Assembly (NCBI GenBank): GCA_964468795.1 | Contig: CAYXWL010000001.1 | Coordinates: 232,246-296,245, forward strand | Length of the DNA stretch: 64,000 bases | Direction: 5' to 3' | DNA from: an uncultured Candidatus Saccharibacteria bacterium | GTDB lineage: Bacteria > Patescibacteriota > Minisyncoccia > Phycocordibacterales > DATDWN01 | Shown: piece after piece, positions 18,886-57,234 of the stretch | How the letters are laid out: each line of letters opens with the position of its first letter | How positions within the stretch are numbered: position 1 is the stretch's first letter | Position numbers and translations under genes: made by a program | The notes under the pieces: generated by a model | Databases searched by the model: none | Told to the model about the DNA's origin: nothing | What the model saw: the letters and a program-made list of their open reading frames with translations, nothing else

Positions 18886-19386
18886 CTAACTCAGTCGACC
18901 CAATAAGGTTTGCCCTGTCGATACCAATCTGGCGTATGACCACCACTGACTGTAATCAGTGAGGATTTCCATACGCCAATGGCTGTCGACTCTGCCGGGA
19001 ATGGGCGGACACAATTCGATGAACGGAGATTGCTGATTGCGCAACTCCTCGTCCCTCGAAACGCGCCTCGCACACACCGGCAAAGTGACACCACTCGCAT
19101 CTTTGACGAATGCGACATTGGCACTGAGCCTCGACGAAAGTTTCCCACTGCATACTCGACCGTCTTTCTTTGGCGCAAGTAAGTTGAGAAAACTGTCGAT
19201 CGAGATAGGGCGATACCTCGTCAGGATCCGCTGCGCGTCGACGTATGTCCCGAGGTCCCAGAGAAGCAAATTGCTCTTCTCTTCGTTCCGGCGCACTTCC
19301 ATATTGCTAAAGTGACGCTCGAAAGTCTCACAAACCTCGAGGACGTTGACACTCACAAGGCGATCCCGAACGATGTAGTTTTCCAT
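18886..19386 (-). CDS. hypothetical protein (166 aa)
   Basis: Start set at MENYIVRDRL, preceded by AAAGGAGGG. GC-rich module. Confidence 0.55.
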   Translation of the reverse strand: MENYIVRDRLVSVNVLEVCETFERHFSNMEVRRNEEKSNLLLWDLGTYVDAQRILTRYRPISIDSFLNLLAPKKDGRVCSGKLSSRLSANVAFVKDASGVTLPVCARRVSRDEELRNQQSPFIELCPPIPGRVDSHWRMEILTDYSQWWSYARLVSTGQTLLGRLS

Positions 19387-19420
19387 GAGCCCTCCTTTGG
19401 GCAAAATACAGACTATTTTT

Positions 19421-19534
19421 AAAGAACTTTGGAACAATTTTGTTCCTTCAGAATACTTAACCTAGGTTAAACCCTCTGAAGGAAGTCCGAGGATATATGA
19501 CTTCCTCGGACGATACCGGGCTGACGCGCCGATA
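19421..19534 (-). promoter_or_regulatory. conserved structured leader, copy B (the homolog is at 26174..26288 on the plus strand)
   Basis: ~75 nt nearly identical to copy A: ATCGGCGCGTCAGCCCGgTATCGTCCGAGGAAGTCATATATCCTCGGACTTCCTTCAGAG. Covarying hairpins and GTTCTTT follow. Confidence 0.5.
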
Positions 19535-19544
19535 GACGTTATTG

Positions 19545-20093
19545 CTAGACTTCTCCCGAGAGATCGTTCGGATCTTCGTGGCCGTCCCACTCGGTGTCGA
19601 CATCTTCTCGCTTCCACTTGAGCCGATGGAGGACGTACTCGATCCTGCCCCTGGATTGTTTGGACAGCTTCCACTTCAACCAGCCGAACTCCTTCTCGAG
19701 CTGAGCAAGATTCTCGATCTGCCAACGCTTCAGGCAAGAAACGAGTCTTGGACTGAAGATGGATTTCGTCGAGATCTCCTCCCGAGGCCGATCTTTCAGC
19801 GAGTCGACGATGGCGTTGAAAGCCATCTCGAACTTCTGTTGCTCTACGGGCGGAGGCGGGAGTGGCTTCGGCGGTTTGCCGGCGTTCTTTCGTGCGGTGC
19901 GAACCTTACGAACTGCCTTGCGGGCAATCTGCATGATTCGCTCCTTCGTGACGGCAAACTCCTGGCCGATGTCGTTGTAGCTCATCCCTTGCGCGAGTAA
20001 GGTCAGGATTCTCTCCTCGCGGGGAGTCGTCCTCATGCGCTCGACTGGTGTGATCTCCGAAATGACAATGCCGAACAAAGTTTTTTTCTGCAA
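19545..20093 (-). CDS. sigma70 region-4-like HTH protein with an extra C-terminal domain
   Basis: TTG start after GGAG. TPREERILTLLAQGMSYNDIGQEFAVTKERIMQIARKAVRKV resembles sigma region 4. FSPRLVSCLKRWQIENLAQL weakly resembles an RpoA-CTD helix-hairpin-helix. Confidence 0.55.
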   Translation of the reverse strand: MQKKTLFGIVISEITPVERMRTTPREERILTLLAQGMSYNDIGQEFAVTKERIMQIARKAVRKVRTARKNAGKPPKPLPPPPVEQQKFEMAFNAIVDSLKDRPREEISTKSIFSPRLVSCLKRWQIENLAQLEKEFGWLKWKLSKQSRGRIEYVLHRLKWKREDVDTEWDGHEDPNDLSGEV

Positions 20094-20128
20094 TGTTTTT
20101 CTCCAAAGAACAAAGGGAAATTATTTTC

Positions 20129-20165
20129 CCGTCAAAACTCTGAAATAAATTCAAAACTTTGACGG
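20129..20165 (-). repeat. IR family copy f (variant arms CCGTCAAA / TTTGACGG)
   Basis: Preceded on the minus strand by hairpin GCCGAACttcgGTTCGGC. Followed by GGGAAAataaTTTCCC, GTTCTTT, GGAG and the start of 19545..20093. Confidence 0.6.
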
Positions 20166-20421
20166 AAGCCGAACCGAAGTTCGGCAAGTGTGATGGTAAA
20201 CTCGGAGTAGTTGTAGCCACTCTTTGCTCTTTAGGTAACTTGCGCCCTTAGCGAATACCCTGATTCCATCGCCAGACAGAATCACGGGAGAGTGGTTAAA
20301 GCTACAACTTCTAACCAACTACTCGCTCAATATGTATCACGGGCCATCACGCTCCACGACACGTCGCAACATTTTTCCTGCTCAAAAAATTCTACGATGT
20401 ACCGTGGAACTTTACAAAGAA

Positions 20422-20474
20422 CTTCTGTTTCGTCGTTTCCGACTCATCAGGTGAGACATACATCTCACGACAGG
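20422..20474 (-). ncRNA. hammerhead ribozyme, type III (HHR1)
   Basis: Minus strand: cCUGUC|GUGAGA-UGUAUG-UCUCAC-CUGAUGA-GUCG-GAAA-CGAC-GAAAC-AG. Full catalytic core, GUC cleavage site. Confidence 0.8.
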
Positions 20475-20558
20475 TGCCTTGGGTGCTAATCAAGACAAAT
20501 GATTTTTGGCCCTACTGCCCCTTGCGGGTACTCGGACCTTCTGTTGCCAAGCCGGTCA

Positions 20559-20939
20559 TTACTCCGGCTCCGTCTCCTCAAGCTGCTCTTCAGCAAGCTC
20601 GAGTTTTCTGCAGGCCTCTTCGAAGGCAACCAAGGCAGGAATGTTTCCCTTGCCCAGCTCTGGCAGCACTACGATTGGGAAGATTTCATCTCCCGTCTCG
20701 AGGTACAACCGAGAACCTTCTCCGTCGTGATGGGCGGCCCGCGAGAACTGGCGATGGCAGGAACGGCACTCGAAATAATCCAAGTCGTTCACTTCCACCG
20801 TGCAAGCTCCACAGGACGGACACCCATAACAAAGGAGTCGGCGTTGCGATTCTTCGTAGGCGAGCATTGGACACGAAGACAAGTGCTCGGACACTGACTC
20901 GTGGCAGTGTCGGCACTTTACCGTCAGTCGCAGTCTCAT
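20559..20939 (-). CDS. Cys-rich zinc-ribbon-like protein (126 aa)
   Basis: ATG at 20939, 5 nt after AGGAGG. CRHC..C..CYGCPSCGAC..CRSC motifs. Confidence 0.55.
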   Translation of the reverse strand: MRLRLTVKCRHCHESVSEHLSSCPMLAYEESQRRLLCYGCPSCGACTVEVNDLDYFECRSCHRQFSRAAHHDGEGSRLYLETGDEIFPIVVLPELGKGNIPALVAFEEACRKLELAEEQLEETEPE

Positions 20940-21315
20940 ACTCACCTCCTATTAAAGAACTTGAGACAAACCATTTGCCTCGTCATAATAATCAAAATCT
21001 TGATTTCTCTGACGAGACCCCGACTGATATTTTAGTCGGGATGTTGTGGTGGTGACTGTAAGCGATTGCAGTCACTTACAACCTTGAGATGTTCGGCGAA
21101 TTCCGAGCACCTCTTAGTGAATGTTTGGCTCCACCCGTATCCGAAATAGATACGGGAATCTGGCGCAAGCGCTGGGTGAGAATCTGCAACTCTCACGCTC
21201 TAAGCACCATTCACTCCCTCATGTATCATGGGCCACCACAGCTCCACGACACCTTGCACAACATTTTTTAGAAAAATTCTGTGCGAGATGTCGTGGATAG
21301 ATCAAAAGAACAGTT

Positions 21316-21366
21316 TCTGTTTCGTCCTTTCGGACTCTTCAGGGAGAATACACATTCTCCGACAGA
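21316..21366 (-). ncRNA. hammerhead ribozyme, type III (HHR2)
   Basis: Minus strand: CUGUC|GGAGAA-UGUGUA-UUCUCC-CUGAAGA-GUCC-GAAA-GGAC-GAAAC-AGA. Only the variable N7 differs from the other copies. Begins 6 nt after the stop codon of 21373..21651. Confidence 0.8.
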
Positions 21367-21372
21367 GCCGGA

Positions 21373-21651
21373 CTAACGTGCCGGCAACGAATAATTTTTT
21401 CTTCTCCACCTCCAAGGTTCATTTGAACCGACTCGGAACACGTAGCGGCCACACCGTGAGGTGTACCAGCCACGCGACTCGTCGGCCTTCCGCATTTTTG
21501 TGCGGAAGAAGTTACGAAGGCGACTCACATCACGCGACGTGAGCGGGCGGCCCTTGAGGACCTTTGCCCAGCTGAAGTACCCGTCTTCACGAGTGATCTC
21601 CAGCAACCGACCACCGAACCGATACTGGCCTCTTGACCACTCGCTTCCCAT
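21373..21651 (-). CDS. hypothetical basic protein (92 aa)
   Basis: ATG preceded by CTAGGAGGTATC. R/W-rich. Confidence 0.45.
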   Translation of the reverse strand: MGSEWSRGQYRFGGRLLEITREDGYFSWAKVLKGRPLTSRDVSRLRNFFRTKMRKADESRGWYTSRCGRYVFRVGSNEPWRWRRKNYSLPAR

Positions 21652-22032
21652 GATACCTCCTAGTTTTGAAAGAATAGTGGGTGTTTGCAGGATCCTCTCT
21701 GACTTTAATAGTCCGTGGCTTATCCACAGCTATTTCCTAGTGGTAACTTACCCACAAGGTCGTCTTTGATTAATCACCGCTAACATTGCACACCCGCGCA
21801 ACGCCAAGATGCCGGCAAGCATCTGGTGGATCGGAGCAAAGTTGCCTGGCCTCAGTTCTGTACGATTGCAGCCACTTTGGACTGCAATCTACCTCTCAGG
21901 CTGCCATGCCTTCGAAACACAGAAGTGTACCTTTGGCTCTGCTCCTAACGAAGATCCATCGGACTCCGGAATTTACCAAACTATTTGTCGAGCAAATTCC
22001 GAAATCCGTGAACCATTTTATTTTAAAGAACT

Positions 22033-22083
22033 TCTGTTTCGTCCTTTCGGACTCATCAGGCGAGACACTCATCTCACGACAGA
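22033..22083 (-). ncRNA. hammerhead ribozyme, type III (HHR3)
   Basis: Minus strand: UCUGUC|GUGAGA-UGAGUG-UCUCGC-CUGAUGA-GUCC-GAAA-GGAC-GAAAC-AGA. 5-bp open stem III. Confidence 0.85.
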
Positions 22084-22133
22084 CCAGGATGACGCTCTGG
22101 TAGACGTTTAGGAGATTCTGTTGCCGAGCTCTC

Positions 22134-22352
22134 CTAGTGCTCCGAGGCTGAGTCAGTGAGGATCAGCGTGGTAACCTCGGCGTAAAACGCCTCGACCTCT
22201 GGTCCACCGAACAGGGGTTTGTAAGACCCGTCGGAGTTCCGAGGCCAGATGCCTATGATGGCATCGAGCGTCGCCTTCGAGAGGTTGAATCTCTCGAAAG
22301 TCTTCCGCGCGAGTTCCTCCGAGATCCCCGTGATCTGATAGACTCTTTTCAT
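22134..22352 (-). CDS. hypothetical protein (72 aa)
   Basis: Start MKRVYQITGISEELARK after GAGGAGAGTGAC. Confidence 0.45.
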   Translation of the reverse strand: MKRVYQITGISEELARKTFERFNLSKATLDAIIGIWPRNSDGSYKPLFGGPEVEAFYAEVTTLILTDSASEH

Positions 22353-22388
22353 GTCACTCTCCTCAAAGAACTCGGAACGAACCATTCG

Positions 22389-22460
22389 TCCCATCAAAGA
22401 AATCAAGCTTTATTATTTTCTTGAAAGTAAACTTTCAAGTTGTTAATTGCTTTGATGGGA
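22389..22460 (-). repeat. IR family copy b: TCCCATCAAAG - 50-nt AT-rich spacer - CTTTGATGGGA
   Basis: 11-bp perfect arms. The spacer contains hairpin CTTGAAAgtttacTTTCAAG. Confidence 0.7.
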
Positions 22461-22566
22461 GGGCAAACGATGTTTTGTCGCTCACCCATGTTTACCCATG
22501 CTTTTACGCGGAAGGATTTTTCCACAACTTCGGTGCCTTGGCCGAAGGTTGACGCACCCAGTCGGA

Positions 22567-22743
22567 TTACTTCTTCCGATAGCCAGGCTTCCCGCCACAG
22601 GGAACGGAAACTGCTTTCACAGATTCCCGTTTTGCGGTTTTCAGCCTGCCGTCGTAGAAGTAACCAGCCCGAGCGAGGATCTTGTTGGCTTGCGCCTCCA
22701 AAGTCCTCTGATGGTTTGTGGCCACCATTGTGATTGTTGTCAT
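22567..22743 (-). CDS. hypothetical protein (58 aa)
   Basis: MTTITMVATNHQRTLEAQ.. preceded by GAGGAGGATC. First ORF after a ~370-nt leader. Confidence 0.4.
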   Translation of the reverse strand: MTTITMVATNHQRTLEAQANKILARAGYFYDGRLKTAKRESVKAVSVPCGGKPGYRKK

Positions 22744-23116
22744 GATCCTCCTCAGGATTGACTGGTTGTTAATGTAAAGAACATCGCGGGGGATGAGTTC
22801 GGGCTGGGGCCTAGTACACCGTGCAGCAACACGGGACTTCAGGCGAAAAGTGACCCCATATTGGTTTGCCTTACGCGAGATTCTTGCTCGCGCCTGGCTC
22901 CGCACACTTCCCTTGCTGAAGGGGAAGACTCCCTATGCGGTATTGAATGCCACCCTACACACCCCCACCTCAAAAGACTTGTATCTTCTGAAGCGGAGGA
23001 ATGTGTCCTCCATTTGTAAAGAAATGCACTTTGAAGTTAATTTTGATTGCGGGTCCGTGATATTTATCTGGACGGTTGCCATTCGCTAATAAAACTTAAC
23101 TTCAAGGTACACTGGT

Positions 23117-24481: not shown

Positions 24482-24979
24482 TTAGGATTTACGATACTTC
24501 TCCTCCATTTCTCGGATAGCTTCCTCCAGAGTTCCGAGTCCCATTGCATGTCTTCTCTCATCAACATGCTCAGGATCCTCGATTTCTTTCGGAATAAACT
24601 TTCCGTCGACTTCAGTAAATTGTGTACCGAAGATTTGTGGACGATCCGTGTTCACTCTCACACGATCTGCGAGGTATGCCAGATCTTCTTTGATGATTTC
24701 CTCGAGAGGGCAATCCATCATAGAGTGTAGGCACAACTGTTGGAACGTGGGGTCATGGTCAGCGTGTTGAACGATGAGCCATGCAGAATGTGATGCTTCT
24801 CTGCCCACCATAGAAATCGTAGGCCATCTGTGATGTAACCAGATCCTCATCATCTTCACAGTGTTCTGAAAATCAACTGTCTCATCCCAGAAATCAGGAT
24901 CAAGAAGATTCTTGGAGCGCATTTCCTGGTCAACACGCCCCATCTCAAGTAGCTGTTCTGCCAACTCAGGGAAGAGCAT
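24482..24979 (-). CDS. hypothetical protein (165 aa)
   Basis: ATG preceded by AAAAAGGAGGTCAC. GC-rich. Ends at terminator CCGCCC..GGGCGG+T-run. Confidence 0.55.
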   Translation of the reverse strand: MLFPELAEQLLEMGRVDQEMRSKNLLDPDFWDETVDFQNTVKMMRIWLHHRWPTISMVGREASHSAWLIVQHADHDPTFQQLCLHSMMDCPLEEIIKEDLAYLADRVRVNTDRPQIFGTQFTEVDGKFIPKEIEDPEHVDERRHAMGLGTLEEAIREMEEKYRKS

Positions 24980-24994
24980 GTGACCTCCTTTTTC

Positions 24995-25222
24995 TCACAC
25001 GGGTTGAGTCCATTCTTTCAGAACTCGCACAGTCTTGACCCAGCTTTTCTGATAGACAAGCGGATCATCACTTGGAGCGTCCACCAGAGCCTTGGCAATC
25101 ACTTCTGCTTTGGCGTCGTCTTCAGCTTCAAATGGGATGAACTTCCAACCTCCGCTGGTTAGCCATCTACTATTCGAAGCTGTGTAACGCATTTCTGCAT
25201 ACCAGACTTCGTATTTCGACAT
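24995..25222 (-). CDS. hypothetical protein (75 aa)
   Basis: Start MSKYEVWYAEMRY after AAACGGAGGTTTT. The track ORF was trimmed. Confidence 0.45.
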   Translation of the reverse strand: MSKYEVWYAEMRYTASNSRWLTSGGWKFIPFEAEDDAKAEVIAKALVDAPSDDPLVYQKSWVKTVRVLKEWTQPV

Positions 25223-25238
25223 AAAACCTCCGTTTCTA

Positions 25239-25284
25239 AATATACCATTTTGTGCTTGACAAGTCAAGTAAAGTATGCTAGGAT
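25239..25284. promoter_or_regulatory. back-to-back divergent promoters with adjacent -35 boxes that together form a palindrome
   Basis: Plus: TTGACA(25256-61)-17-TAGGAT. Minus: TTGACT(25267-62)-17-TATATT. The -35 boxes lie in CTTGACaaGTCAAG. Confidence 0.5.
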
Positions 25285-25353
25285 AGAGGTAGTAATTCCT
25301 GTATGTATGTACAGGTCGCCCGAGAAGGGTAGGACAGAAAAAGGATGTGTCGT

Positions 25354-25662
25354 ATGACGCAGAATGCATATGATTTGAAGAAGATCGTGAACGGTCCGAG
25401 CAAGATGGACCTCATGCTGGCGATGTTCGACAGCAGCTTCCCGAATCACCGTTCAGTTGTCTTCAACTTTGAGAATGAGGGAGCGAGCAACTTCAAAGCT
25501 AGTGCTCCCTGTCACATCTCGATGGTTGAGAAGGAAGACGGTTCTGGCGAAAGCTTTAACTTCGAAGGAACTCTCTCCTACGACAACTTCCGGACAGGTA
25601 AGAGGGTGCGTGGTTGCTATAACACCATGCGCCGGACTGGCTTCTTCCACTTCGTGCAGTAG
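25354..25662 (+). CDS. hypothetical protein (102 aa)
   Basis: MTQNAYDLKKIVNG.. after AAAAAGGA. Confidence 0.45.
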   Translation: MTQNAYDLKKIVNGPSKMDLMLAMFDSSFPNHRSVVFNFENEGASNFKASAPCHISMVEKEDGSGESFNFEGTLSYDNFRTGKRVRGCYNTMRRTGFFHFVQ

Positions 25663-25690
25663 TTCTTCTGGGCGAGTTGTTAACTCGCCC

Positions 25691-25730
25691 TCCCATCAAA
25701 GTAATTAAATTTTTGATTTCTTTGATGGGA
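25691..25730 (+). repeat. IR family copy c
   Basis: GGGCGAGTTgttAACTCGCCC hairpin, then TCCCATCAAAG-18 nt-CTTTGATGGGA. Confidence 0.7.
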
Positions 25731-25782
25731 CAATTTGGTCCCGATTTGTTCATTTCAATTTTCAGTGCCCAAAGGAGGGCCC

Positions 25783-26154
25783 ATGATCAACGAACGTGGT
25801 GAGTTTATTCGCGAGACGGCAGCTCCTTCTACCAAGGAAGTCACCACGAAGAATTACATGGTCAACGTGGTCACTTCATCGCTCAAGGATATTCTCAGTG
25901 GACACAACCTGATCAGCGACATGAACCAGGTTATCCTTCTCCAGTTCGGACCTTGCTCGGAAGAGGAAGGTGACGCTCTGGCGGATCGGATCAACGCGTG
26001 GGTTCGTGGGGGTGAAGGTCGTGGTCCTGCTGAGGCATTCCGGATTCTGGGACTGCACCAGAAGACGGGAGATGTGTGGGCGTCTTGCGACCCGATCCCG
26101 ACGGCTGGCATCTCGGAACTTCTCCAAAAGTTCCAGGTGAAAACCACTGTTTGA
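25783..26154 (+). CDS. hypothetical protein (123 aa)
   Basis: MINERGEFIRE.. after AAAGGAGGGCCC. Confidence 0.5.
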   Translation: MINERGEFIRETAAPSTKEVTTKNYMVNVVTSSLKDILSGHNLISDMNQVILLQFGPCSEEEGDALADRINAWVRGGEGRGPAEAFRILGLHQKTGDVWASCDPIPTAGISELLQKFQVKTTV

Positions 26155-26173
26155 TCAACATAAAGATCCGTCC

Positions 26174-26288
26174 ATCGGCGCGTCAGCCCGATATCGTCCG
26201 AGGAAGTCATATTATCCTCGGACTTCCTTCAGAGAGTTCAACTTTGTTTGAAAATTCTGAAGGAACGAATAGTTCGTTCTGGTTCTTT
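26174..26288 (+). promoter_or_regulatory. conserved structured leader, copy A
   Basis: ATCGGCGCGTCAGCCCGATATCGTCCGAGGAAGTCATATTATCCTCGGACTTCCTTCAGAG ... TTCTGAAGGAACGAAtagTTCGTTCtgGTTCTTT, then GGGGAGG and ATG at 26302. Confidence 0.5.
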
Positions 26289-26301
26289 GGGGAGGTACAC
26301 C

Positions 26302-26520
26302 ATGTTCGTCAGCAATACCACGATTTTTCACTGCCCGATGTTCGGGTGCGGTCACGAAAACGAACGTTCGAACCGCACGAAGCCGGAAGACATCGTTTGC
26401 GAAGGATGTCACGCACCTTGGTGGCCGATGGAACTCGGTTTCATTGGAAATGATCCGAAAGAAAACATCGAGTTCGCACGGACTCATGATCGGAAAGGAA
26501 ATCTTCGTGAGCTGGCGTAA
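26302..26520 (+). CDS. zinc-ribbon-like small protein (72 aa)
   Basis: MFVSNTTIFHCPMFGCGHENE..CEGCHAPWW. Confidence 0.45.
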   Translation: MFVSNTTIFHCPMFGCGHENERSNRTKPEDIVCEGCHAPWWPMELGFIGNDPKENIEFARTHDRKGNLRELA

Positions 26521-26550
26521 TTCTTCTGGGCGAACGTAATTTGTTCGCCC

Positions 26551-39805: not shown

Positions 39806-39879
39806 TGCGCCTGCCTGGACTCGAACCAGGGACCCCAGAGGTATAAGCTCTGTGCTCTAACCAACTGAGCTACAGGCGC
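39806..39879 (-). tRNA. tRNA-Ile with anticodon UAU
   Basis: GCGCCUG-UA-GCUC..GAGC-A-CAGAG-CUUAUAC-CUCUG-..CCUGG-UUCGAGU-CCAGG-CAGGCGC-A. No encoded CCA. Confidence 0.8.
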
Positions 39880-39965: not shown

Positions 39966-40175
39966 TCATGCAGCATCCTTCTTGCGAAGGGTGTAGGTGC
40001 CGGTCTTGGCGTCATGCGATAAAACTTCATATCGCCTTCCGCATATTGCACAGGAGAATTCTTTTCTAAAGCCAGAAGCAAGAACTGGCAAAAGTTTCCC
40101 TTTGCACCATAACTCCTTGCCACCTTTGAGAATTTTCCCCGTGCACAGCTCGCTAGCGGTAGTCGTGTTCGACAT
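39966..40175 (-). CDS. small zinc-ribbon-like ORF (69 aa; start uncertain)
   Basis: C..C...CAIC pattern. Overlaps the upstream ORF by 23 nt. GC-rich cassette ending in terminator GGCCGGAGaataaatCTCCGGCC. Confidence 0.35.
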   Translation of the reverse strand: MSNTTTASELCTGKILKGGKELWCKGKLLPVLASGFRKEFSCAICGRRYEVLSHDAKTGTYTLRKKDAA

Positions 40176-40380
40176 GGCCAAGCTGTCTGAAAACTCCGGC
40201 ATCAGCCCCGATACGCATGAGCTCCGCCTCGCAAACCTCCGGATCGCCATTTACGCGATCTTTCAGCCTGCTGAGCACAGCATCTACCAGTGCAACTTTC
40301 GGATCCTGTGCTCCGTTCTTTCGACAAATCTGGTCCCTGATCCCCGCCCCCAGACTTTCAACCATGTGATGCGAGACCAT
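40153..40380 (-). CDS. small hypothetical ORF (75 aa)
   Basis: MVSHHMVESLGAG.. after ACAGGAGGAGCCAA. Own promoter TTGAAT-16-TAGAAT (40427-40400) right after the ftsH stop. Confidence 0.4.
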   Translation of the reverse strand: MVSHHMVESLGAGIRDQICRKNGAQDPKVALVDAVLSRLKDRVNGDPEVCEAELMRIGADAGVFRQLGHVEHDYR

Positions 40381-40429
40381 TTGGCTCCTCCTGTCCTGCA
40401 TTCTACAACAAATGGAAATAAATTCAATA

Positions 40430-42367
40430 CTAGGCTTGATGCTCAATGTCCAGCTTCTGCTTTGGAGTAACTCCATGAGCTACAAGTATATTTTCAAATT
40501 CTGCCCTCTCAATTGTTTCGACTTCCATAAGCCTTCTTGCAATTGCTTCTAGCAAATTCATGTTTTGAGAAATAGTAGCCTCGGCTCTCTGCATTGCTTC
40601 GTTCATTATCCGAGAAACTTCTCCATCAACTTCGGCCGCTACCCTTTCAGATATTTCTGTTTCTTCAACACCTCTGCCAAATAAAACTTTTCCTCCTTGG
40701 CCCTCAAGAGCAATAGGTCCGAGCTTATCTGACATTCCGTATTTTGTAACCATGTCTCTAGCTAAAGCTGTCGAAACCTGCAAATCATTTGATGGGCCAG
40801 TAGTCAGATCGCCAAACTTCATTTTTTCAGTAACATATCCGCCAAGCGAAACAACAATATCATCCAAAAATTCCTTCTTTGACTGTAGCTTTTTATCCTC
40901 CAGTGGAAGATGCAGAACGTATCCCGCTGCCCTGCCTCGGGAAATGATAGAAATCTTGTGAACAGGATCTGCATACGAAAGAAGCGACGCTAGGACTGCA
41001 TGGCCAGCTTCGTGATAAGCAGTAATCTCTTTTTCCTTCTTTGAAAGCACATGGCTCTTTCTCTCTGGACCGAGCATAACTTTTTCAATAGAGCGTATAA
41101 GATCGTACTGAGAAACTTTTGTCCTATTTTCTCGCGCAGCCAAGATAGCTCCTTCATTCATGAGAGAATAAAGATCTGCTCCGGAAAAACCCGGCGTTCT
41201 TTCAGCAATAACTTTCAAATTAACATCTTCGGCAAAAGGCTTTCTGTTGCTGTGGACTTTAAGTATCTCTTCTCTGTCTTTCCTATCTGGAAGTTCAAGA
41301 GTTACCCTCCTATCAAACCTGCCTGGTCGCAAAAGAGCAGGGTCTAGAACGTCTGGCCTGTTCGTTGCCGCCATGACAATCACCTTTTCATTCGGCTCGA
41401 AGCCATCCATCTCAACCAAGATCTGATTTAAAGTCTGTTCTCGCTCATCGTTTCCTCCTCCAGCACCAACTCCTCGCACTCGTCCAACCGCATCTATTTC
41501 ATCCACGAAAATAATGGACGGAGAATTCCTCTTTGCCATTGTAAACAAATCTCGCACTCGAGAAGCACCGACTCCGACAAACATCTCGACGAATTCCGAA
41601 CCGGAAATGGAGAAGAAAGCTACCCCCGCCTCACCAGCAACTGCTCTGGCCAGCAAAGTTTTTCCAGTTCCAGGTGCACCCATGAGCAATATTCCTTTTG
41701 GAATTCGAGCACCAATGTCCAAAAACTTCCTCGGGTTTCGAAGAAAATCTACAATTTCAGTCAATTCTTCTTTTGCTTCTTTTGCACCTGCAACATCCTT
41801 GAAGGTTACTCTCTGATTTTTGTCATTTGGATCAATCATCCTAGCCTTCGATTGTCCAAAAGTTAAAGCCTGCATGCCCGCTCCCTTTACCTGCCTTGTA
41901 ATGAACCAGATGAAAACCAAAATGAAAAGTATCGGGAAAATAATCGGAGAAAGATTTATAAACCAGTATCCAAGCCCCGTCTCGTTTTTTATATCAACCT
42001 CGATTGCTGACAACTGCTCTTTTGTAACTCCATAGTTCACCAGCGTCTGTGAAAGTGCTTCGCCAGCTTCTTTCTTTGACGTTTTCTTGTCGCCCGACTT
42101 GTATTCTATATCCAAGCTTTCGCCTCTGACTACGATATTTTTTACAAGACCGCCTTTGATGTCAGAAGATAGAGTAGAGATAGGTATGTCTACTGTCTTA
42201 TCGTTTTTTAAGCCAGTCAAAGCTGAGTAAGCGAAAGAAAGTATGAGAAAAATGGCCAAAACAGAAACTACGTATCCGATAATAGAATTATCCTCCGGGC
42301 CCTTGCCTCCCTTTGGTCTTTTCTTGATTATTATTTTTGTTTTTTCTGGCTGTTCTGGTTTGTTCAT
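40430..42367 (-). CDS. ftsH: ATP-dependent zinc metalloprotease FtsH
   Basis: Start trimmed to MNKPEQPEK. Walker [22 protein letters not shown] region, HEAGHA zinc site. Confidence 0.9.
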
Positions 42368-43146: not shown

Positions 43147-43533
43147 GGGGATGACAGGTTTTGACATAAGGACGACATTGATTCGTGCAATGCGGAGCTT
43201 CGATAACTCCTGAAACTGTCGAAAACAATAAGTGTAAAAAACTTATCTAAGGGCATTGCGTCTCCTTTTGGAAACGCATTCGCTTTCTCACCAGCACTAG
43301 CATAAGCTAACTCGGTAAGACGGTCATTTCCATGATACCTCTATATGGAAAATGATTGATATAAAACGAGGTTAGGATAAAAGACTGTTCCGACTCTTGT
43401 CCGAAAAATAGGAACTCGATCACAATGTATTTTGTTTGTTCCAAGCATTGTGGTTTAACACACTAAACAATCTACGCACTGTAGAAACGCTTCAATTCTC
43501 TTTATGGACGTGGTTTCGATACCACCATCTCCA
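43147..43533 (+). ncRNA. ssrA: tmRNA (ssrA)
   Basis: 5' GGGGATGACAGGTTTTGAC. 3' tRNA-like GGACGTGGTTTCGATACCACCATCTCCAC. Tag frame ..GCATTCGCTTTCTCACCAGCACTAGCATAA (..AFAFSPALA*). Confidence 0.85.
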
Positions 43534-43594
43534 CAAAAAAACAGAACGCCATTTATGGCATTCATCAAAAAACTCCCGTTCGGGAGTTTTTTGA

Positions 43595-54994: not shown

Positions 54995-55387
54995 TTACCA
55001 AATTTTGAATAGCGCCTCGCCTCCAATGTTAGCTTCCTTTGCTGCTTTGTCTGTCATGATTCCTTTTGGTGTTGAAAGGATTAGGCTTCCTAGTCCGTTC
55101 TTAACCTTCTTTATATCCTTTGCCTTCTGGTATACCCTCTTTGAAGTCTTTGAAACTCTGTCTACTCCAGAGATCTTTGGCATTCCGTCTGCATCGTACA
55201 AAAGTCCTACTTCGATAAACTTAGCGACCTTCTTTCCCTTCTTTCCGAAAGACTTTATAAATCCGTCTTTTAGAAGAACATCGAGAATAGCAAGCTTTAG
55301 CTTTGAATGCGGAAATACAACAGATTCCTTCTTTGAATCTGAAGCGTTCTTTATTCTCACTATCATATCTGCGATTGGATCTGTCAT
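54995..55387 (-). CDS. rpsH: 30S ribosomal protein S8
   Basis: MTDPIADMIVRIKNA. Confidence 0.9.
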   Translation of the reverse strand: MTDPIADMIVRIKNASDSKKESVVFPHSKLKLAILDVLLKDGFIKSFGKKGKKVAKFIEVGLLYDADGMPKISGVDRVSKTSKRVYQKAKDIKKVKNGLGSLILSTPKGIMTDKAAKEANIGGEALFKIW

Positions 55388-55463
55388 GTGTATTTATGAT
55401 ATCTGGACAGTATCTCTCATCTAGCGACTTGAGACTTGTCCGGACGTCTTCTGTGCTAGCAGA

Positions 55464-55649
55464 CTACCAGCTAGACTTCTTAACGCCAGGGATTTTACCC
55501 TCGTTGGCAAGCTCTCGGAAGCAGATTCTGCAGAGACCAAAATCTCGCATGAATGCCCTTCCTCGTCCACACTTAAAGCATCGGTTTGTTGCCCGAGTAG
55601 AGAATTTTGGCTTTTTAGCCGCTCTTGCTTTAACTGATGTTTTTGCCAT
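55464..55649 (-). CDS. rpsN: 30S ribosomal protein S14 (type Z, zinc-binding)
   Basis: 61 aa. [24 protein letters not shown]. Confidence 0.9.
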
Positions 55650-55717
55650 TGTTATTAAAAAAGCTTTTTCAAGCTCAAACTACACTATCAAAACTCGTGT
55701 ATAAAGTCAAACAAAAT

Positions 55718-55745
55718 GCCCGGGTCTCCTTTCGGAGACCCGGGC
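55718..55745 (-). terminator. strong intrinsic terminator inside the spc operon
   Basis: Minus strand GCCCGGGTCTCCgaaaGGAGACCCGGGC + ATTTTGTTT. Confidence 0.7.
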
Positions 55746-55755
55746 ACAGACAGAA

Positions 55756-56412
55756 CTACAAGCCCACACGAAGTACGAGTCTTGCTTCTTCGAGCTTGTG
55801 CCGAGCAGGACCATTCCCAAACTTCTCGACCTGCTCCTCGAGGTTCATGCCTGTGTTAAATGACATGACGAATGGGACATTCAGACGGGAATCCCGTTCG
55901 ACAATGTACCGGAAGGCATTGTCGAAGGTCTCGCGAGAGATCTGATTCGCACTAATCTTGGTGATCTTAAAAGCAACTTCCGCCAAGATATTACGAAGCT
56001 CATAGTCTGTTCCTGTAAATGCAGGCACCAGATCCTTGCGCTTGGAAAAAGTGAAGGTCTGATCTACCCACACTTGCGGTCGCGTTGTTTTGTATTTTGC
56101 GACCATTCCGGGTTCAGACAAATTATCCTGAATATACCGGTAAGCATCAAGAGCTTCGACAAATGCTGAGTAGAGGGTAATTGCTGTAACCCCCTTCACC
56201 TCATTCATAACGAAGAGTGGATTATGCTCGCAAGCATATCGGAACATGCGCTTCTCGAAAAGATTTTCACGCCATCTTCGAGGAAGACGACGCAAATACC
56301 TGATCCCTTTCGGAACCGCCCACATCACGGAAAGGAACAGCCCCGTGCTCCAGAAGAGCAGACCGAAGTAAATAACAAGCCAGCCAGCCCTGTACAAGTT
56401 GTAAAGGTCCAT
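55756..56412 (-). CDS. hypothetical membrane-anchored protein (218 aa) in a GC-richer cassette
   Basis: N-terminal TM pair (WLVIYFGLLFWSTGLFLSVMWAV). ATG after GATGGAGGCAGT. No motif recognised. Confidence 0.6.
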   Translation of the reverse strand: MDLYNLYRAGWLVIYFGLLFWSTGLFLSVMWAVPKGIRYLRRLPRRWRENLFEKRMFRYACEHNPLFVMNEVKGVTAITLYSAFVEALDAYRYIQDNLSEPGMVAKYKTTRPQVWVDQTFTFSKRKDLVPAFTGTDYELRNILAEVAFKITKISANQISRETFDNAFRYIVERDSRLNVPFVMSFNTGMNLEEQVEKFGNGPARHKLEEARLVLRVGL

Positions 56413-56490
56413 ACTGCCTCCATCTGTACCAATCCTAGTCCTACGCTCCTCAAAATGAGGAGTGTGGCTGGTAGTACAGATTTGTAATAT

Positions 56491-56520
56491 ATTATATCAC
56501 TATTTGTACTGTAGTGTCAA
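56491..56520 (-). promoter_or_regulatory. consensus sigma70 promoter of the cassette
   Basis: Minus strand TTGACA-18 nt-TATAAT, followed by a ~80-nt hairpin-containing leader. Confidence 0.55.
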
Positions 56521-56700
56521 TATATCCCTGATAAAGAAAAAACTCCATTTATGGAGTTTTTTCTTTACACGAGTTTGTCGTTCTGAGGATTTTTGCTAGA
56601 GTTCGAGGTGGGAGTGCGGATTGCGACCAAGCTGTACAAGTAGTATTGCGCGGGAGCAAACGCAAGCGACAAACAAAGAAATCGAGCAAAAAGACCAGAA

Positions 56701-57234
56701 CTACTTTTTGAATGGGAATCCTAGGTGCCGTAGATAGGCCTCAGTCTCTTTCTTATCCTTTATATTTGTAACAATTGTTACCGCAAGTCCGAACACATCT
56801 TTTAGTTCTTCATCTCCTGTTTCTGGGAAGATAGTGTGCTCTCTTATTCCTAAAGTGTAGTTTCCCATCTGATCAATGCCATTTGTAGAAATTCCTCTAA
56901 AGTCTTTTGTTCGTGGAAGAGCAATGTTTACAAGTCTGTCTAGAAAATCATACATTCTCTGACCTCGCAATGTTACCTGCATTCCAATAGTGTCTCCCTG
57001 TCGTACCTTGAAAGCTGCGATAGAAATCTTTGCTCCTCTTCGTGATGGCTTCTGGCCTGTAATTTTTGCAATTCTGTCTGCAACAAGTTCGATTTTCTTC
57101 TTATCAAATCTAGAACCAGTTCCAACAGAAACAACCACCTTTTGGATCTTTGGTGCCTGCATTACGTTCTTGTATCCAAAATCAGACTTTAGAACATCGA
57201 AACTCTTTTTTGTTTTTGCTTTTATTGATTCCAT
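56701..57234 (-). CDS. rplE: 50S ribosomal protein L5
   Basis: 177 aa. ..PKIQKVVVSVGTG.. and ..FRGIS..GNYTLGI.. Confidence 0.9.
   Translation of the reverse strand: MESIKAKTKKSFDVLKSDFGYKNVMQAPKIQKVVVSVGTGSRFDKKKIELVADRIAKITGQKPSRRGAKISIAAFKVRQGDTIGMQVTLRGQRMYDFLDRLVNIALPRTKDFRGISTNGIDQMGNYTLGIREHTIFPETGDEELKDVFGLAVTIVTNIKDKKETEAYLRHLGFPFKK

Follow-up and report, generated by a model that had tools for sequence, protein, structure and literature searches.

In the 64-kb stretch of DNA that has been analysed here, to which we refer as "the window", the ribosomal-protein genes rplE and rpsN are located on the minus strand and are separated by a gap of 1,051 nt (positions 55650-56700), as the first-pass annotation of the window had stated. 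The gene rplE (56701-57234), which encodes the 177-aa protein uL5, forms the upstream conserved flank of the gap, and rpsN (55464-55649), which encodes a zinc-ribbon type uS14 of 61 aa, forms the downstream conserved flank; an ORF of 218 aa is located between them on the same strand, and secY is found in the same gene cluster in the list of ORFs. The product of rplE is 80-82% identical to the L5 proteins of MAGs from Zambryskibacteria/Parcubacteria, and the Lys-rich C-terminal tail of these relatives' L5 is missing from it. The two genes are normally adjacent, as had also been claimed, with 4-28 nt between them in the outgroups. The S10-spc-alpha cluster normally ranks among the regions of highest synteny, and, in well-studied phyla, insertions in it are located mainly between operons (PMC8046335).

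Control elements around the cassette

The side of the gap that is next to rplE is occupied by a palindromic intergenic element of about 125 nt with a long hairpin (56575-56705, minus strand), which begins at the rplE stop codon. This element is located outside the cassette that contains the ORF and, by its sequence, is a member of a dispersed element family: copies that are 76-80% identical are found elsewhere between genes of the cluster in the related loci L004, L011 and L026, its hairpin covaries, and the model of the element (R2) gives weaker matches, on both strands, in L007, L013, L017, L018, L019 and L095.

The rplE unit ends at a perfect 17-nt palindrome (56532-56567, no strand assigned), which is bordered by an A-run and a T-run and is therefore a predicted terminator of bidirectional form. 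A hairpin with a T-run is found at the same position in most of the relatives that we have examined, including L014, where the site between rplE and rpsN is empty; the palindrome and its A/T runs, previously annotated as a bidirectional terminator of the insert, are confirmed, but the terminator is a feature of the host rplE and is kept at the empty site.

The promoter of the cassette, TTGACA-18-(TG)TATAAT (56520->56491, minus strand), agrees with the consensus at 12 of 12 positions, as had been noticed, and also carries the TG dinucleotide; transcription is predicted to start near 56484, and equivalent near-consensus promoters are located upstream of all homologous cassettes. At its other end, the cassette is closed by a terminator, GUGCCCGGGUCUCC-GAAA-GGAGACCCGGGCAU then UUUUGUUU (55716-55747, minus strand), with a stem of 14 bp that includes 10 G-C pairs, in agreement with its earlier description as very strong. 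Hairpins of the GUGCCCGG...CCGGGCAC type close homologous as well as unrelated cassettes (L009, L011, L084, L086 and L093), and the hairpins that end the cassettes are of two recurring types, whatever the cargo.

Past this terminator, we find TTGACT-17-(TG)ATAGTGT (55710->55682, minus strand), which is the rpsN-rpsH-rplF... promoter of the host and has an extended -10 TG. A promoter that resembles TTGACTT-N17-TGnTAGTAT precedes rpsN in 24 of 24 related loci, empty sites included, and is also found in the broader Paceibacteria, at rplE-rpsN gaps of 42-130 nt; this conservation supports the earlier proposal that transcription of rpsN may be re-initiated here. The transcript of this unit would begin with a short 5'-terminal hairpin, GAGCUU-GAAA-AAGCUU followed by a U-run (55661-55676, minus strand), which is likewise a host feature: in relatives, the stem differs, but the pairing is kept (GAGCU/AGCUC, GACUC/GAGUG and AGCUU/AAGCU, compared by eye). 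The promoters and terminators that are described here are sequence-level predictions, i.e. consensus matches for which conservation is the sole support.

The 218-aa protein and its family

The ORF (55756-56412, minus strand) encodes a protein with an N-terminal TM helix and an alpha/beta domain. Its GC content is 0.484 and its GC3 is 0.553, against 0.413 +/- 0.06 and 0.395 +/- 0.107, respectively, for 79 ORFs of the window; its composition is unlike that of the ribosomal genes, and, in 9 of the 10 homologous rplE loci, the GC content of the family gene exceeds that of the remainder of the locus. Searches with Pfam, PHROGs, PADLOC and NCBIfam have found no domain in it. The previous description of a GC-richer ORF of 218 aa with no recognisable domain is correct in these respects, but hydropathy and AlphaFold2 indicate one TM helix and not two; this helix runs on as a long helix that spans residues 3-62. 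The AlphaFold2 model (pLDDT 91.7) has no fold match in the PDB or in BFVD. The protein is predicted to be single-pass and anchored in the membrane via its N-terminal helix, and the alpha/beta domain is predicted to be cytoplasmic, because a basic stretch follows the TM helix.

The number of relatives that are retrieved depends on the type of search: a word-indexed homology search returns the protein itself alone, the profile version returns 3 members, and an exhaustive HMMER search returns 35 divergent clusters or representatives. As judged from these searches, the ORF is no orphan, and its family, to which we refer as the ORF218 family, is rare and rapidly diverging. Every close member for which sequence on the 5' side can be inspected follows rplE; distant members occur at other loci, e.g. 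beside ybeY or ftsA, and retain the promoter, a rod-like leader, the GC-rich gene and the terminator. The identities within the family do not correlate with the identities of the L5 proteins (Mantel r = 0.12, p = 0.25), in a test of low power. The family has no match in PADLOC, in phage or plasmid collections, or in IMG/VR, INPHARED and BFVD.

The order of terminator, promoter, leader, ORF, terminator and rpsN promoter is shared by homologous loci whose proteins are 26-36% identical to the ORF of the window, and a single gene with its own promoter and its own terminator is conserved in 10 homologous loci. These comparisons support the proposal that promoter, leader, ORF and terminator form a compositionally distinct unit that is probably autonomous.

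The structured leader

Between the promoter and the ORF, the cassette contains a 5' leader that is predicted to fold into a rod-like hairpin (56422-56481, minus strand), made of an outer helix, a core and an apical hairpin (56462-56446). In the core, the 5' segment CCAGCCAC (56471-56464) pairs with the 3' segment GUAGGACUAGG (56444-56434), leaving three bulged A. The Shine-Dalgarno sequence GGAGG (56417-56421, minus strand) is located directly 3' of the rod and 4 nt 5' of the ATG, and is unpaired in the MFE structure, whose energy is -29.8 kcal/mol (z = -4.5). The leader of about 80 nt, with a hairpin abutting the Shine-Dalgarno sequence, that had been proposed is confirmed: the leader measures about 75 nt, and the 3' end of the hairpin abuts GGAGG.

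A covarying rod leader with three bulged adenines is found in 11 of 11 distinct close family loci, 4 of which had been held out. The rod is about 60 nt long, and its consensus core consists of 5' CCNGCCAC and 3' GUAGGAC[GU]AGG, with the three bulged adenines regularly spaced. The covariance model of the leader (R1) scores 59 bits at the leader of the window and 22-50 bits in the 4 held-out loci. Compensatory changes occur in 13 of 20 pairs, in an alignment that has been fitted to model R1, a number that 0 of 500 shuffles reach; pairing amounts to 79%, compared with 29-41% in the slide controls. RNAalifold alone calls just the apical hairpin, and the evidence for the lower helices comes from MFE folds of single sequences together with the model-fitted alignment. 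We have assigned the structure to the sense strand because G-U pairs are frequent in the pair counts.

The rod accompanies this gene family alone and is not found in the other cassettes of the site; in the distant member L091, model R1, with its filters off, gives a non-significant match of 9 bits at the expected place. Rfam contains no credible match, ribosomal leaders included, at E <= 10 over positions 55350-56800, and over the whole window, at gathering thresholds, it recognises just tmRNA and two tRNAs; the window contains no rRNA. By its conserved pairing at a fixed position, the leader can be classed as a putative structured cis-regulatory 5' UTR element, in the generic sense of the class. 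Two further candidates have been rejected: a leader peptide, given that the short upstream ATGs lack conservation and are out of frame, and 16 JGI metagenome loci from a scan for the leader pattern, none of which fits the covariance model or encodes the family gene, and which we attribute to chance.

A variable site in related genomes

The comparison of the rplE-rpsN junction across relatives, which the first-pass annotation had proposed, has revealed empty sites as well as sites with differing cargo. More than 400 nt separate rplE from rpsN in 35 of 58 related loci, and in 10 more, rpsN is located more than 4 kb away. The cargo, which is unrelated between loci, includes a reverse transcriptase, a Panacea antitoxin, HTH proteins, pilins and small membrane proteins, and in L015 the cassettes form a tandem array. 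Remote homology of the ORF218 protein to small membrane proteins encoded by other cassettes of the site has been considered and rejected, with HHalign probabilities against the family profile that are all below 4%.

The variation extends to sister genomes, where the site is empty (L014), holds an unrelated ORF (L016) or holds an ORF of the family (L019). The flanks of the empty L014 and the filled L016 are almost the same, and the difference between the two loci amounts to about 600 bp, without any duplication of the target. The rpsN promoter is retained in the empty-site loci L012 and L014, and L014 retains the rplE terminator too. The relatives have different ORFs or none, rather than the same host-like ORF throughout.

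By gene order, the rplE|rpsN boundary is a variable site, to which we refer as "the slot", across the lineage of Zambryskibacteria-like Paceibacteria (CPR/Patescibacteria). We have found no description of a rplE-rpsN insertion site in CPR bacteria in the literature. The cassette, which had been described as very unusual for its place in a conserved operon, is not unique, since the slot varies lineage-wide with unrelated cargo. It does lie between genes that are adjacent in the outgroups, as the claim of an insertion inside the spc operon implied, but there is no working operon here for it to disrupt, the terminator and the promoter on its two sides being host features.

Discussion

Phage morons are autonomous units of promoter, gene and terminator that are located between the conserved genes of lambdoid phages, and often encode membrane or superinfection-exclusion proteins, e.g. 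gp15 of HK97; they have reportedly been described by Hendrix and Juhala in 2000 and by Cumby in 2012. The cassette resembles them in its own strong promoter and terminator, its small and, by prediction, membrane-anchored protein, its location between two genes that are neighbours in relatives, its variable presence among close relatives and its deviant base composition (GC3 0.553 against 0.395). Unlike them, it is located in a cellular ribosomal-protein gene cluster and not in a prophage, it has no phage match, and it has a conserved structured 5' leader. It is thus moron-like, but it is not a phage moron, because its flanks are ribosomal and it has no relatives in IMG/VR, INPHARED and BFVD.

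Chromosomal hot spots, i.e. flexible genomic islets or integration hot spots, consist of accessory genes that are flanked by core genes. The slot agrees with them in its core flanks rplE and rpsN, in its variable, unrelated cargo, which includes genes of defence or TA type, and in the empty sites of sister genomes; it differs from them in that its cargo comes as very small modules of one gene each, which are individually insulated, in that no integrase or tRNA is involved, and in its location inside the S10-spc-alpha cluster, which is normally highly syntenic (PMC8046335). With integron arrays, the slot shares tandem single-gene modules at one site, each ending in an imperfect GC-rich palindrome, but its cassettes have their own promoters, their palindromes look like ordinary intrinsic terminators with no attC R'/R'' consensus (by eye), and the gene calls of the loci examined include no integrase. 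In comparison with the spc operon of E. coli, which is under S8 translational feedback at rplE, the order rplN-rplX-rplE-rpsN-rpsH-rplF... and the presence of structured RNA elements in the cluster are the same, whereas in the window a terminator and an internal promoter separate the part of the cluster that ends with rplE from the part that starts with rpsN, and the structured leader belongs to the inserted gene and has no Rfam ribosomal leader match.

That the insert is an artefact of assembly or binning is suggested by its compositional contrast and by nothing else, and we consider this practically negligible: the identical ORF is located in the same rplE context in contigs from SRR6837569, SRR13612670 and SRR14932508, of which the SRR13612670 contig also has rpsN downstream of the ORF, and 10 other genomes have the same architecture. 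As the DNA is identical in three sequencing runs, found in several repositories, an assembly chimera is ruled out. A different reading takes the unit for a selfish or addictive mobile element that is bounded by terminal inverted repeats and has been inserted in an essential operon, which it exploits. The inverted repeats that were said to bracket the unit are present as a perfect pair of 11 nt (55691-55701 and 56566-56576), somewhat longer than expected by chance at this one locus, as 11 of 2000 shuffles give a match of this length between the two intergenic regions; the unit is GC-richer than its surroundings, and TA-like or reverse-transcriptase genes occur in the slots of some relatives. 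However, the repeats are not conserved boundaries: seven other cassettes at the site, three of which are homologous, have inverted repeats of 5-8 nt, which is the level of chance, and the left arm, given as 55691-55706 in the first-pass annotation, lies in the spacer of the promoter that is conserved ahead of rpsN. The 64-kb window contains no further exact copy of the 11-nt repeat, for which it had been proposed to search, and no second copy of the cassette, and no transposase, integrase or toxin domain is found with Pfam, NCBIfam, PADLOC and PHROG; the alignment of L014 with L016, which holds a different cassette at the same site, contains no target-site duplication, and the site is not part of a functional operon in this lineage. 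The unit has a single gene with no toxin/antitoxin signature in Pfam and PADLOC, and nothing in it points to a two-component toxin-antitoxin or addiction module. We regard the mobile-element reading as already largely refuted and as very improbable.

The protein might instead be a lineage-specific translation or secretion factor, e.g. a membrane tether or a partner of the ribosome or SecY, that is kept in the cluster for its function, with the leader as an autoregulatory operator of ribosomal-protein type. The position of close members, directly downstream of rplE wherever the flank can be seen, the presence of secY in the cluster and the bulged purines of the leader, which are similar in style to ribosomal-protein operators, are consistent with such a role; we find it improbable in view of the insulation of the unit by terminators on both sides, its patchy distribution, with empty sites or unrelated genes in sister genomes, the distant members beside unrelated genes, a composition that is unlike that of ribosomal genes, and the lack of a ribosomal leader match in Rfam. 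The covarying stem and conserved bulged bases of the leader could also be those of a DNA-level recombination site, i.e. a single-strand hairpin with extrahelical bases, comparable to integron attC or to IS200/IS605 ends, that mobilises promoter-bounded cassettes into the slot, a reading with which the tandem arrays (L015) and the two types of cassette-end hairpins are compatible. Against it, the hairpin is internal, between promoter and ORF, and not at the end of the unit; it is restricted to one gene family; its many G-U pairs are C-A mismatches on the opposite strand; and no integrase or Y1 transposase is located near any locus examined. We consider this highly improbable.

In our opinion, the cassette is probably a moron-like accessory unit in a recombination hot spot, and one of the occupants of a lineage-specific slot. 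According to this reading, the spc cluster would already consist of two transcription units, rplE with its own terminator and rpsN-rpsH-rplF... with its own promoter and short 5' hairpin, between which zero, one or several insulated modules may be located, each of which comprises a gene, its sigma-70 promoter of near-consensus sequence and a terminator rich in GC. The cassette appears to be tolerated because the cluster is already split by the internal terminator and promoter. It would be transcribed on its own, insulated from its neighbours. Its leader would function as RNA: it may stabilise the 5' end of the transcript, serve as the operator to which a trans-acting protein binds to control translation, or do both. 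The turnover of modules, by gain, loss or replacement, would proceed by homologous recombination via the ribosomal genes on either side, which are highly conserved.

The role of the protein would be accessory and membrane-associated; if phage morons are taken as a guide, our best guess, albeit a tentative one, is that it serves to exclude phages or to defend against them, or that it functions in the envelope. A bolder extension, which we hold to be unlikely, is that the rplE|rpsN boundary of Paceibacteria could be a dedicated, integrase-free docking site where small insulated modules are exchanged between lineages, and that the ORF218 module could carry an undescribed riboregulator, a rod with bulged A that senses a protein or a ligand and controls a membrane-anchored defence or exclusion protein of new fold.

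Two new objects result from this analysis: a protein family whose structure is predicted with confidence and has no fold match, and a covarying 5' leader RNA that is absent from Rfam. Few gene arrangements of bacteria are as stable as the S10-spc-alpha cluster, and yet one of the junctions inside this cluster is used by a whole CPR lineage as a hot spot for accessory genes; the slot bears on how ultra-small genomes fit flexible genes, as well as on MAG binning and phylogenomics where these rely on the synteny of ribosomal-protein genes.

Organisation of the rplE-rpsN interval

The ribosomal genes of the region are located on the minus strand, where our ORF list places rplE at 56701-57234, a 218-aa ORF (ORF218) at 55756-56412, rpsN, which encodes a 61-aa zinc-ribbon S14 protein, at 55464-55649, and rpsH at 54995-55387. 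The gap between rplE and rpsN is 1,051 nt, as the first-pass annotation, made by a model from the sequence alone, had reported, and the parts that it had described within the gap are real: the palindromic terminator, a perfect 17-nt palindrome flanked by runs of A and T (56532-56567); a consensus promoter, TTGACA-18-TATAAT, with 12 of 12 matches and an extended -10 TG (56520 to 56491, minus strand); a leader of about 75 nt between this promoter and the ORF; ORF218 itself; a terminator with a 14-bp stem that contains 10 G-C pairs (55716-55747, minus strand); and a candidate promoter before rpsN, TTGACT-17-(TG)ATAGTGT (55710 to 55682, minus strand). We refer to the promoter-leader-ORF-terminator unit as “the cassette” and to the rplE-rpsN junction as “the slot”. 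ORF218 is indeed GC-richer (GC 0.484, GC3 0.553) than the 79 ORFs of the window (mean GC 0.413 +/- 0.06, GC3 0.395 +/- 0.107), and it has no match in Pfam, PHROGs, PADLOC or NCBIfam, so that the earlier remark on its lack of a recognisable domain stands. The possibility that the insert is an assembly chimera is ruled out, since an identical ORF lies beside rplE in contigs of three different sequencing runs; in one of these runs, rpsN is seen downstream as well.

Contents of the slot in related genomes

The L5 protein of the window is 80-82% identical to the L5 proteins of MAGs named Zambryskibacteria, Parcubacteria or Minisyncoccia (CPR/Patescibacteria). In our survey of the junction in 80 related genome loci, both rplE and rpsN have been found in 58, with a gap of less than 50 nt in 11 (mostly outgroups), of 50-400 nt in 12 and of more than 400 nt in 35; rpsN has not been found in 10 loci with 4 kb of downstream sequence to hand, nor in 12 loci with less (1 to 3 kb). 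In the closest relatives, the slot carries at least one ORF, co-directional with the cluster, and its DNA is usually GC-richer than the remainder of the locus. Rather than one and the same ORF of host-like composition in all relatives, the slot holds unrelated cargo and is empty at some sites: the cargo differs from genome to genome (63 singletons in an all-against-all BLAST), and its Pfam matches comprise a reverse transcriptase, a SocA/Panacea antitoxin domain, a four-HTH protein, a receiver domain, glycosyltransferases and a ROK kinase. Type IV pilin-like N-termini are recognised by eye in two slot ORFs, many of the slot ORFs are small, N-terminally anchored membrane proteins without a family, and the comparison of the ORF218 family profile with 22 other slot ORFs (HHalign) has given probabilities below 4% throughout. 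One locus (L015, 4532-7338) contains a tandem array, i.e. an ORF218-family cassette, a SocA/Panacea-domain gene and a 143-aa membrane protein related to those of loci L004 and L006, with a TTGACTT promoter box after the terminator of the first cassette.

The slot as an operon boundary

The cassette is located between two transcription units, because relatives with an empty site keep the rplE terminator and/or the rpsN promoter: a hairpin with a T-run is kept directly after rplE in L014, and the promoter TTGACTT-N17-TGnTAGTAT is kept before rpsN in both L012 and L014. This promoter occurs in 24 of the 24 loci examined, and also in broader Paceibacteria with gaps of just 42-130 nt; loci in which rplE directly adjoins rpsN lack it. 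The flanks of L014 (empty) and L016 (a 166-aa ORF) are nearly identical, the difference being a segment of about 600 bp, bounded in L016 by the terminator T-run on one side and the rpsN -35 box on the other; in the L5 tree, L014, L016, whose ORF is unrelated to ORF218, and L019, which carries an ORF218 homologue, are sisters. The location of the slot agrees with other phyla, where insertions in this gene cluster occur mainly between operons (PMC8046335).

A small hairpin with a U-run follows the rpsN promoter in a broad Paceibacteria clade (window 55661-55710, with equivalents in L004-L031 and L084-L095); its stem sequence varies among genomes while the pairing is kept, and promoter and hairpin together might serve the rpsN-rpsH-rplF unit as an attenuator or as a 5' stabiliser. 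In several relatives, additional palindromic sequences of about 40-190 nt are inserted within this hairpin or just behind it (L014 4640-4700, L016 5220-5280, and upstream of rpsN in L006, L013 and L007); the intergenic regions of the ribosomal cluster seem to gather small palindromic elements.

A longer element of this kind, a covarying hairpin of about 125 nt, starts at the rplE stop codon (56575-56705, minus strand) and has a conserved core (CUCCaCGCGCAgUACUnnnUGUACAGCUUGGUC), covarying stems and no match in Rfam. The window holds a single copy; in relatives, copies with 76-80% identity occupy different intergenic sites of the cluster (L004 5396-5527, L011 5501-5632, L026 8179-8299), and weaker copies, on both strands, in six more loci (L007 3597-3723, L013 5708-5836 and 5391-5516, L019 5696-5824, L095 683-808, L017 2089-2214, L018 359-490). 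It resembles a small palindromic element, mobile or structured, or an ncRNA. Relatives have a Lys-rich tail of about 20-30 aa at the C-terminus of L5 that is missing from the L5 protein of the window (177 aa), and since the element begins at the stop codon of this tail-less L5 (56701-56705), its insertion may have shortened rplE.

The ORF218 family

A word-indexed homology search with ORF218 has returned only the protein itself; when 1.84 billion representatives were scanned exhaustively with HMMER, 35 proteins of 154-260 aa emerged, with 23-38% identity to the query and the conserved motifs N70, PTFTFA, AHTG and RDxRLxVPF. These constitute a new protein family. Wherever they can be placed with their upstream flank visible, the closer members lie directly downstream of rplE (L015, L019, L084-L089, L092, L094 and L095; in L093 only the downstream rpsN is visible), and for most of them rpsN comes next. 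The homologous loci, at 26-36% protein identity to ORF218, retain the full order of rplE stop, terminator, near-consensus promoter, leader, ORF, GC-rich terminator and rpsN promoter, and of 10 homologous rplE loci, 9 have a family gene with a higher GC content than the remainder of the locus. Two distant members occur at other sites, one of them adjoining ybeY and ftsA; both retain a consensus promoter, a terminator and a rod-like leader, the last with another sequence, and their genes are GC-rich (0.52-0.53 vs 0.40-0.45). Judged from these sequences, the family is rare and travels together with its regulatory parts. Family identity and L5 identity correlate little in a Mantel test, itself a weak one (r = 0.12, p = 0.25), and the history of the family may be one of vertical descent with rapid divergence or of horizontal exchange.

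The AlphaFold2 model of ORF218 (35-sequence alignment, pLDDT 91.7) consists of a helix that spans residues 3-62 and a compact alpha/beta domain. The two N-terminal transmembrane helices proposed earlier are thus replaced by a single one (a hydrophobic N-terminus, with a membrane anchor at about residues 10-33) that runs on as the long helix; the basic stretch after the anchor predicts a cytoplasmic C-terminus. A profile search of PDB sequences has given no credible match, and no relatives have been found in phage, plasmid and viral collections. Some phage morons encode membrane-anchored exclusion proteins, and a moron of this kind would be the closest analogy for the working of ORF218; a defence or exclusion function, the guess drawn from this likeness, has a low probability.

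The leader RNA

The seven leaders found first all fold into the same rod, whose outer helix begins a few nt from the predicted transcription start. In its core, 5' CCNGCCAC is paired with 3' GUAGGAC[GU]AGG, with three single-A bulges at a spacing of two base pairs; the apical hairpin covaries, and the Shine-Dalgarno sequence is unpaired, directly 3' of the rod. The covariance model built from these seven leaders (R1) finds matches in four held-out ORF218-family loci (22-50 bits), in each case directly before the start codon, and the MFE structure of the four held-out leaders has the same core fold; R1 finds no further match in the window, also with filters off, or in 76 further loci, among them every other slot cassette. 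In the alignment of 11 leaders, which is fitted to R1, 79% of cells are paired and compensatory changes are seen at 13 of 20 pairs, values reached in 0 of 500 shuffles; sliding the pairing partners as a control has lowered pairing to 29-41%, and RNAalifold alone supports the apical stem only. G-U pairs are frequent and assign the structure to the sense strand, an indication of RNA. The leader, which has no match in Rfam, is a new candidate regulatory RNA; its inferred role is that of a stabiliser at the 5' end, of an operator through which a bound protein would control translation, or of both, and the conserved bulges speak for a specific, putative partner.

Interpretation of the cassette

The first-pass annotation had described a unit bounded by terminal inverted repeats within an operon, and had suggested a selfish or addictive element. 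An inverted repeat is present, perfect over 11 nt in departure from the earlier description, and one of at least 11 nt between the two intergenic regions arises in 11 of 2000 shuffles, i.e. it is mildly unusual at this locus. As a boundary signal it fails: seven other cassettes at the slot in relatives, three of them homologous, have inverted repeats of only 5-8 nt, the chance level; the 64-kb window contains neither a further exact copy of the 11-nt repeat nor a second copy of the cassette; and of its two arms, the left one falls within the spacer of a promoter shared by all relatives, while the right one is found between the rplE terminator and the unrelated palindromic element (56575-56705). 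A transposon bounded by these repeats is therefore rejected, the comparison of L014 with L016 showing no target duplication either. Nor does the cassette, a single gene with no match in Pfam or PADLOC, qualify as an addiction module, and no operon is interrupted, the slot being a pre-existing operon boundary.

The cassette is instead a moron-like accessory unit in a variable slot, found across the lineage, at this boundary. We hold this architectural reading with high confidence; the whole explanation, in which the cassette would be transcribed independently from its own promoter, would be controlled at the RNA level and would be exchanged by recombination in the flanks, we consider reasonably probable.

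The window contains other accessory DNA. GC-rich islands at 18886-22905, 24482-27778 and 39997-40470 (GC 0.45-0.56 vs about 0.40) hold short, mostly unannotatable ORFs, with Sigma70_r4-like and DUF6624 as the sole Pfam matches; the genome thus has further GC-rich accessory DNA of the compositional class of the cassette. The third island abuts a tRNA (39806-39879), and a tmRNA gene is located at 43147-43536 (Rfam, 112 bits). A second moron-like unit of the same promoter-leader-ORF-terminator order lies at 30780-31830 on the minus strand, with the promoter TTGACA-18-(TG)ATATACT (31829 to 31800, minus strand), a leader of about 140 nt, an ORF of GC 0.55 without a Pfam domain, and a terminator. 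A reverse-transcriptase gene (32650-33689, plus strand), split in two ORFs (32629-33231 and 33171-33719), adjoins another tRNA (33795-33883) and is 45-48% identical to the reverse transcriptase in the slot of L005, so that one type of accessory gene lies within the slot in L005 and outside it in the genome of the window. The cassette itself carries a new protein family together with a new candidate regulatory RNA.
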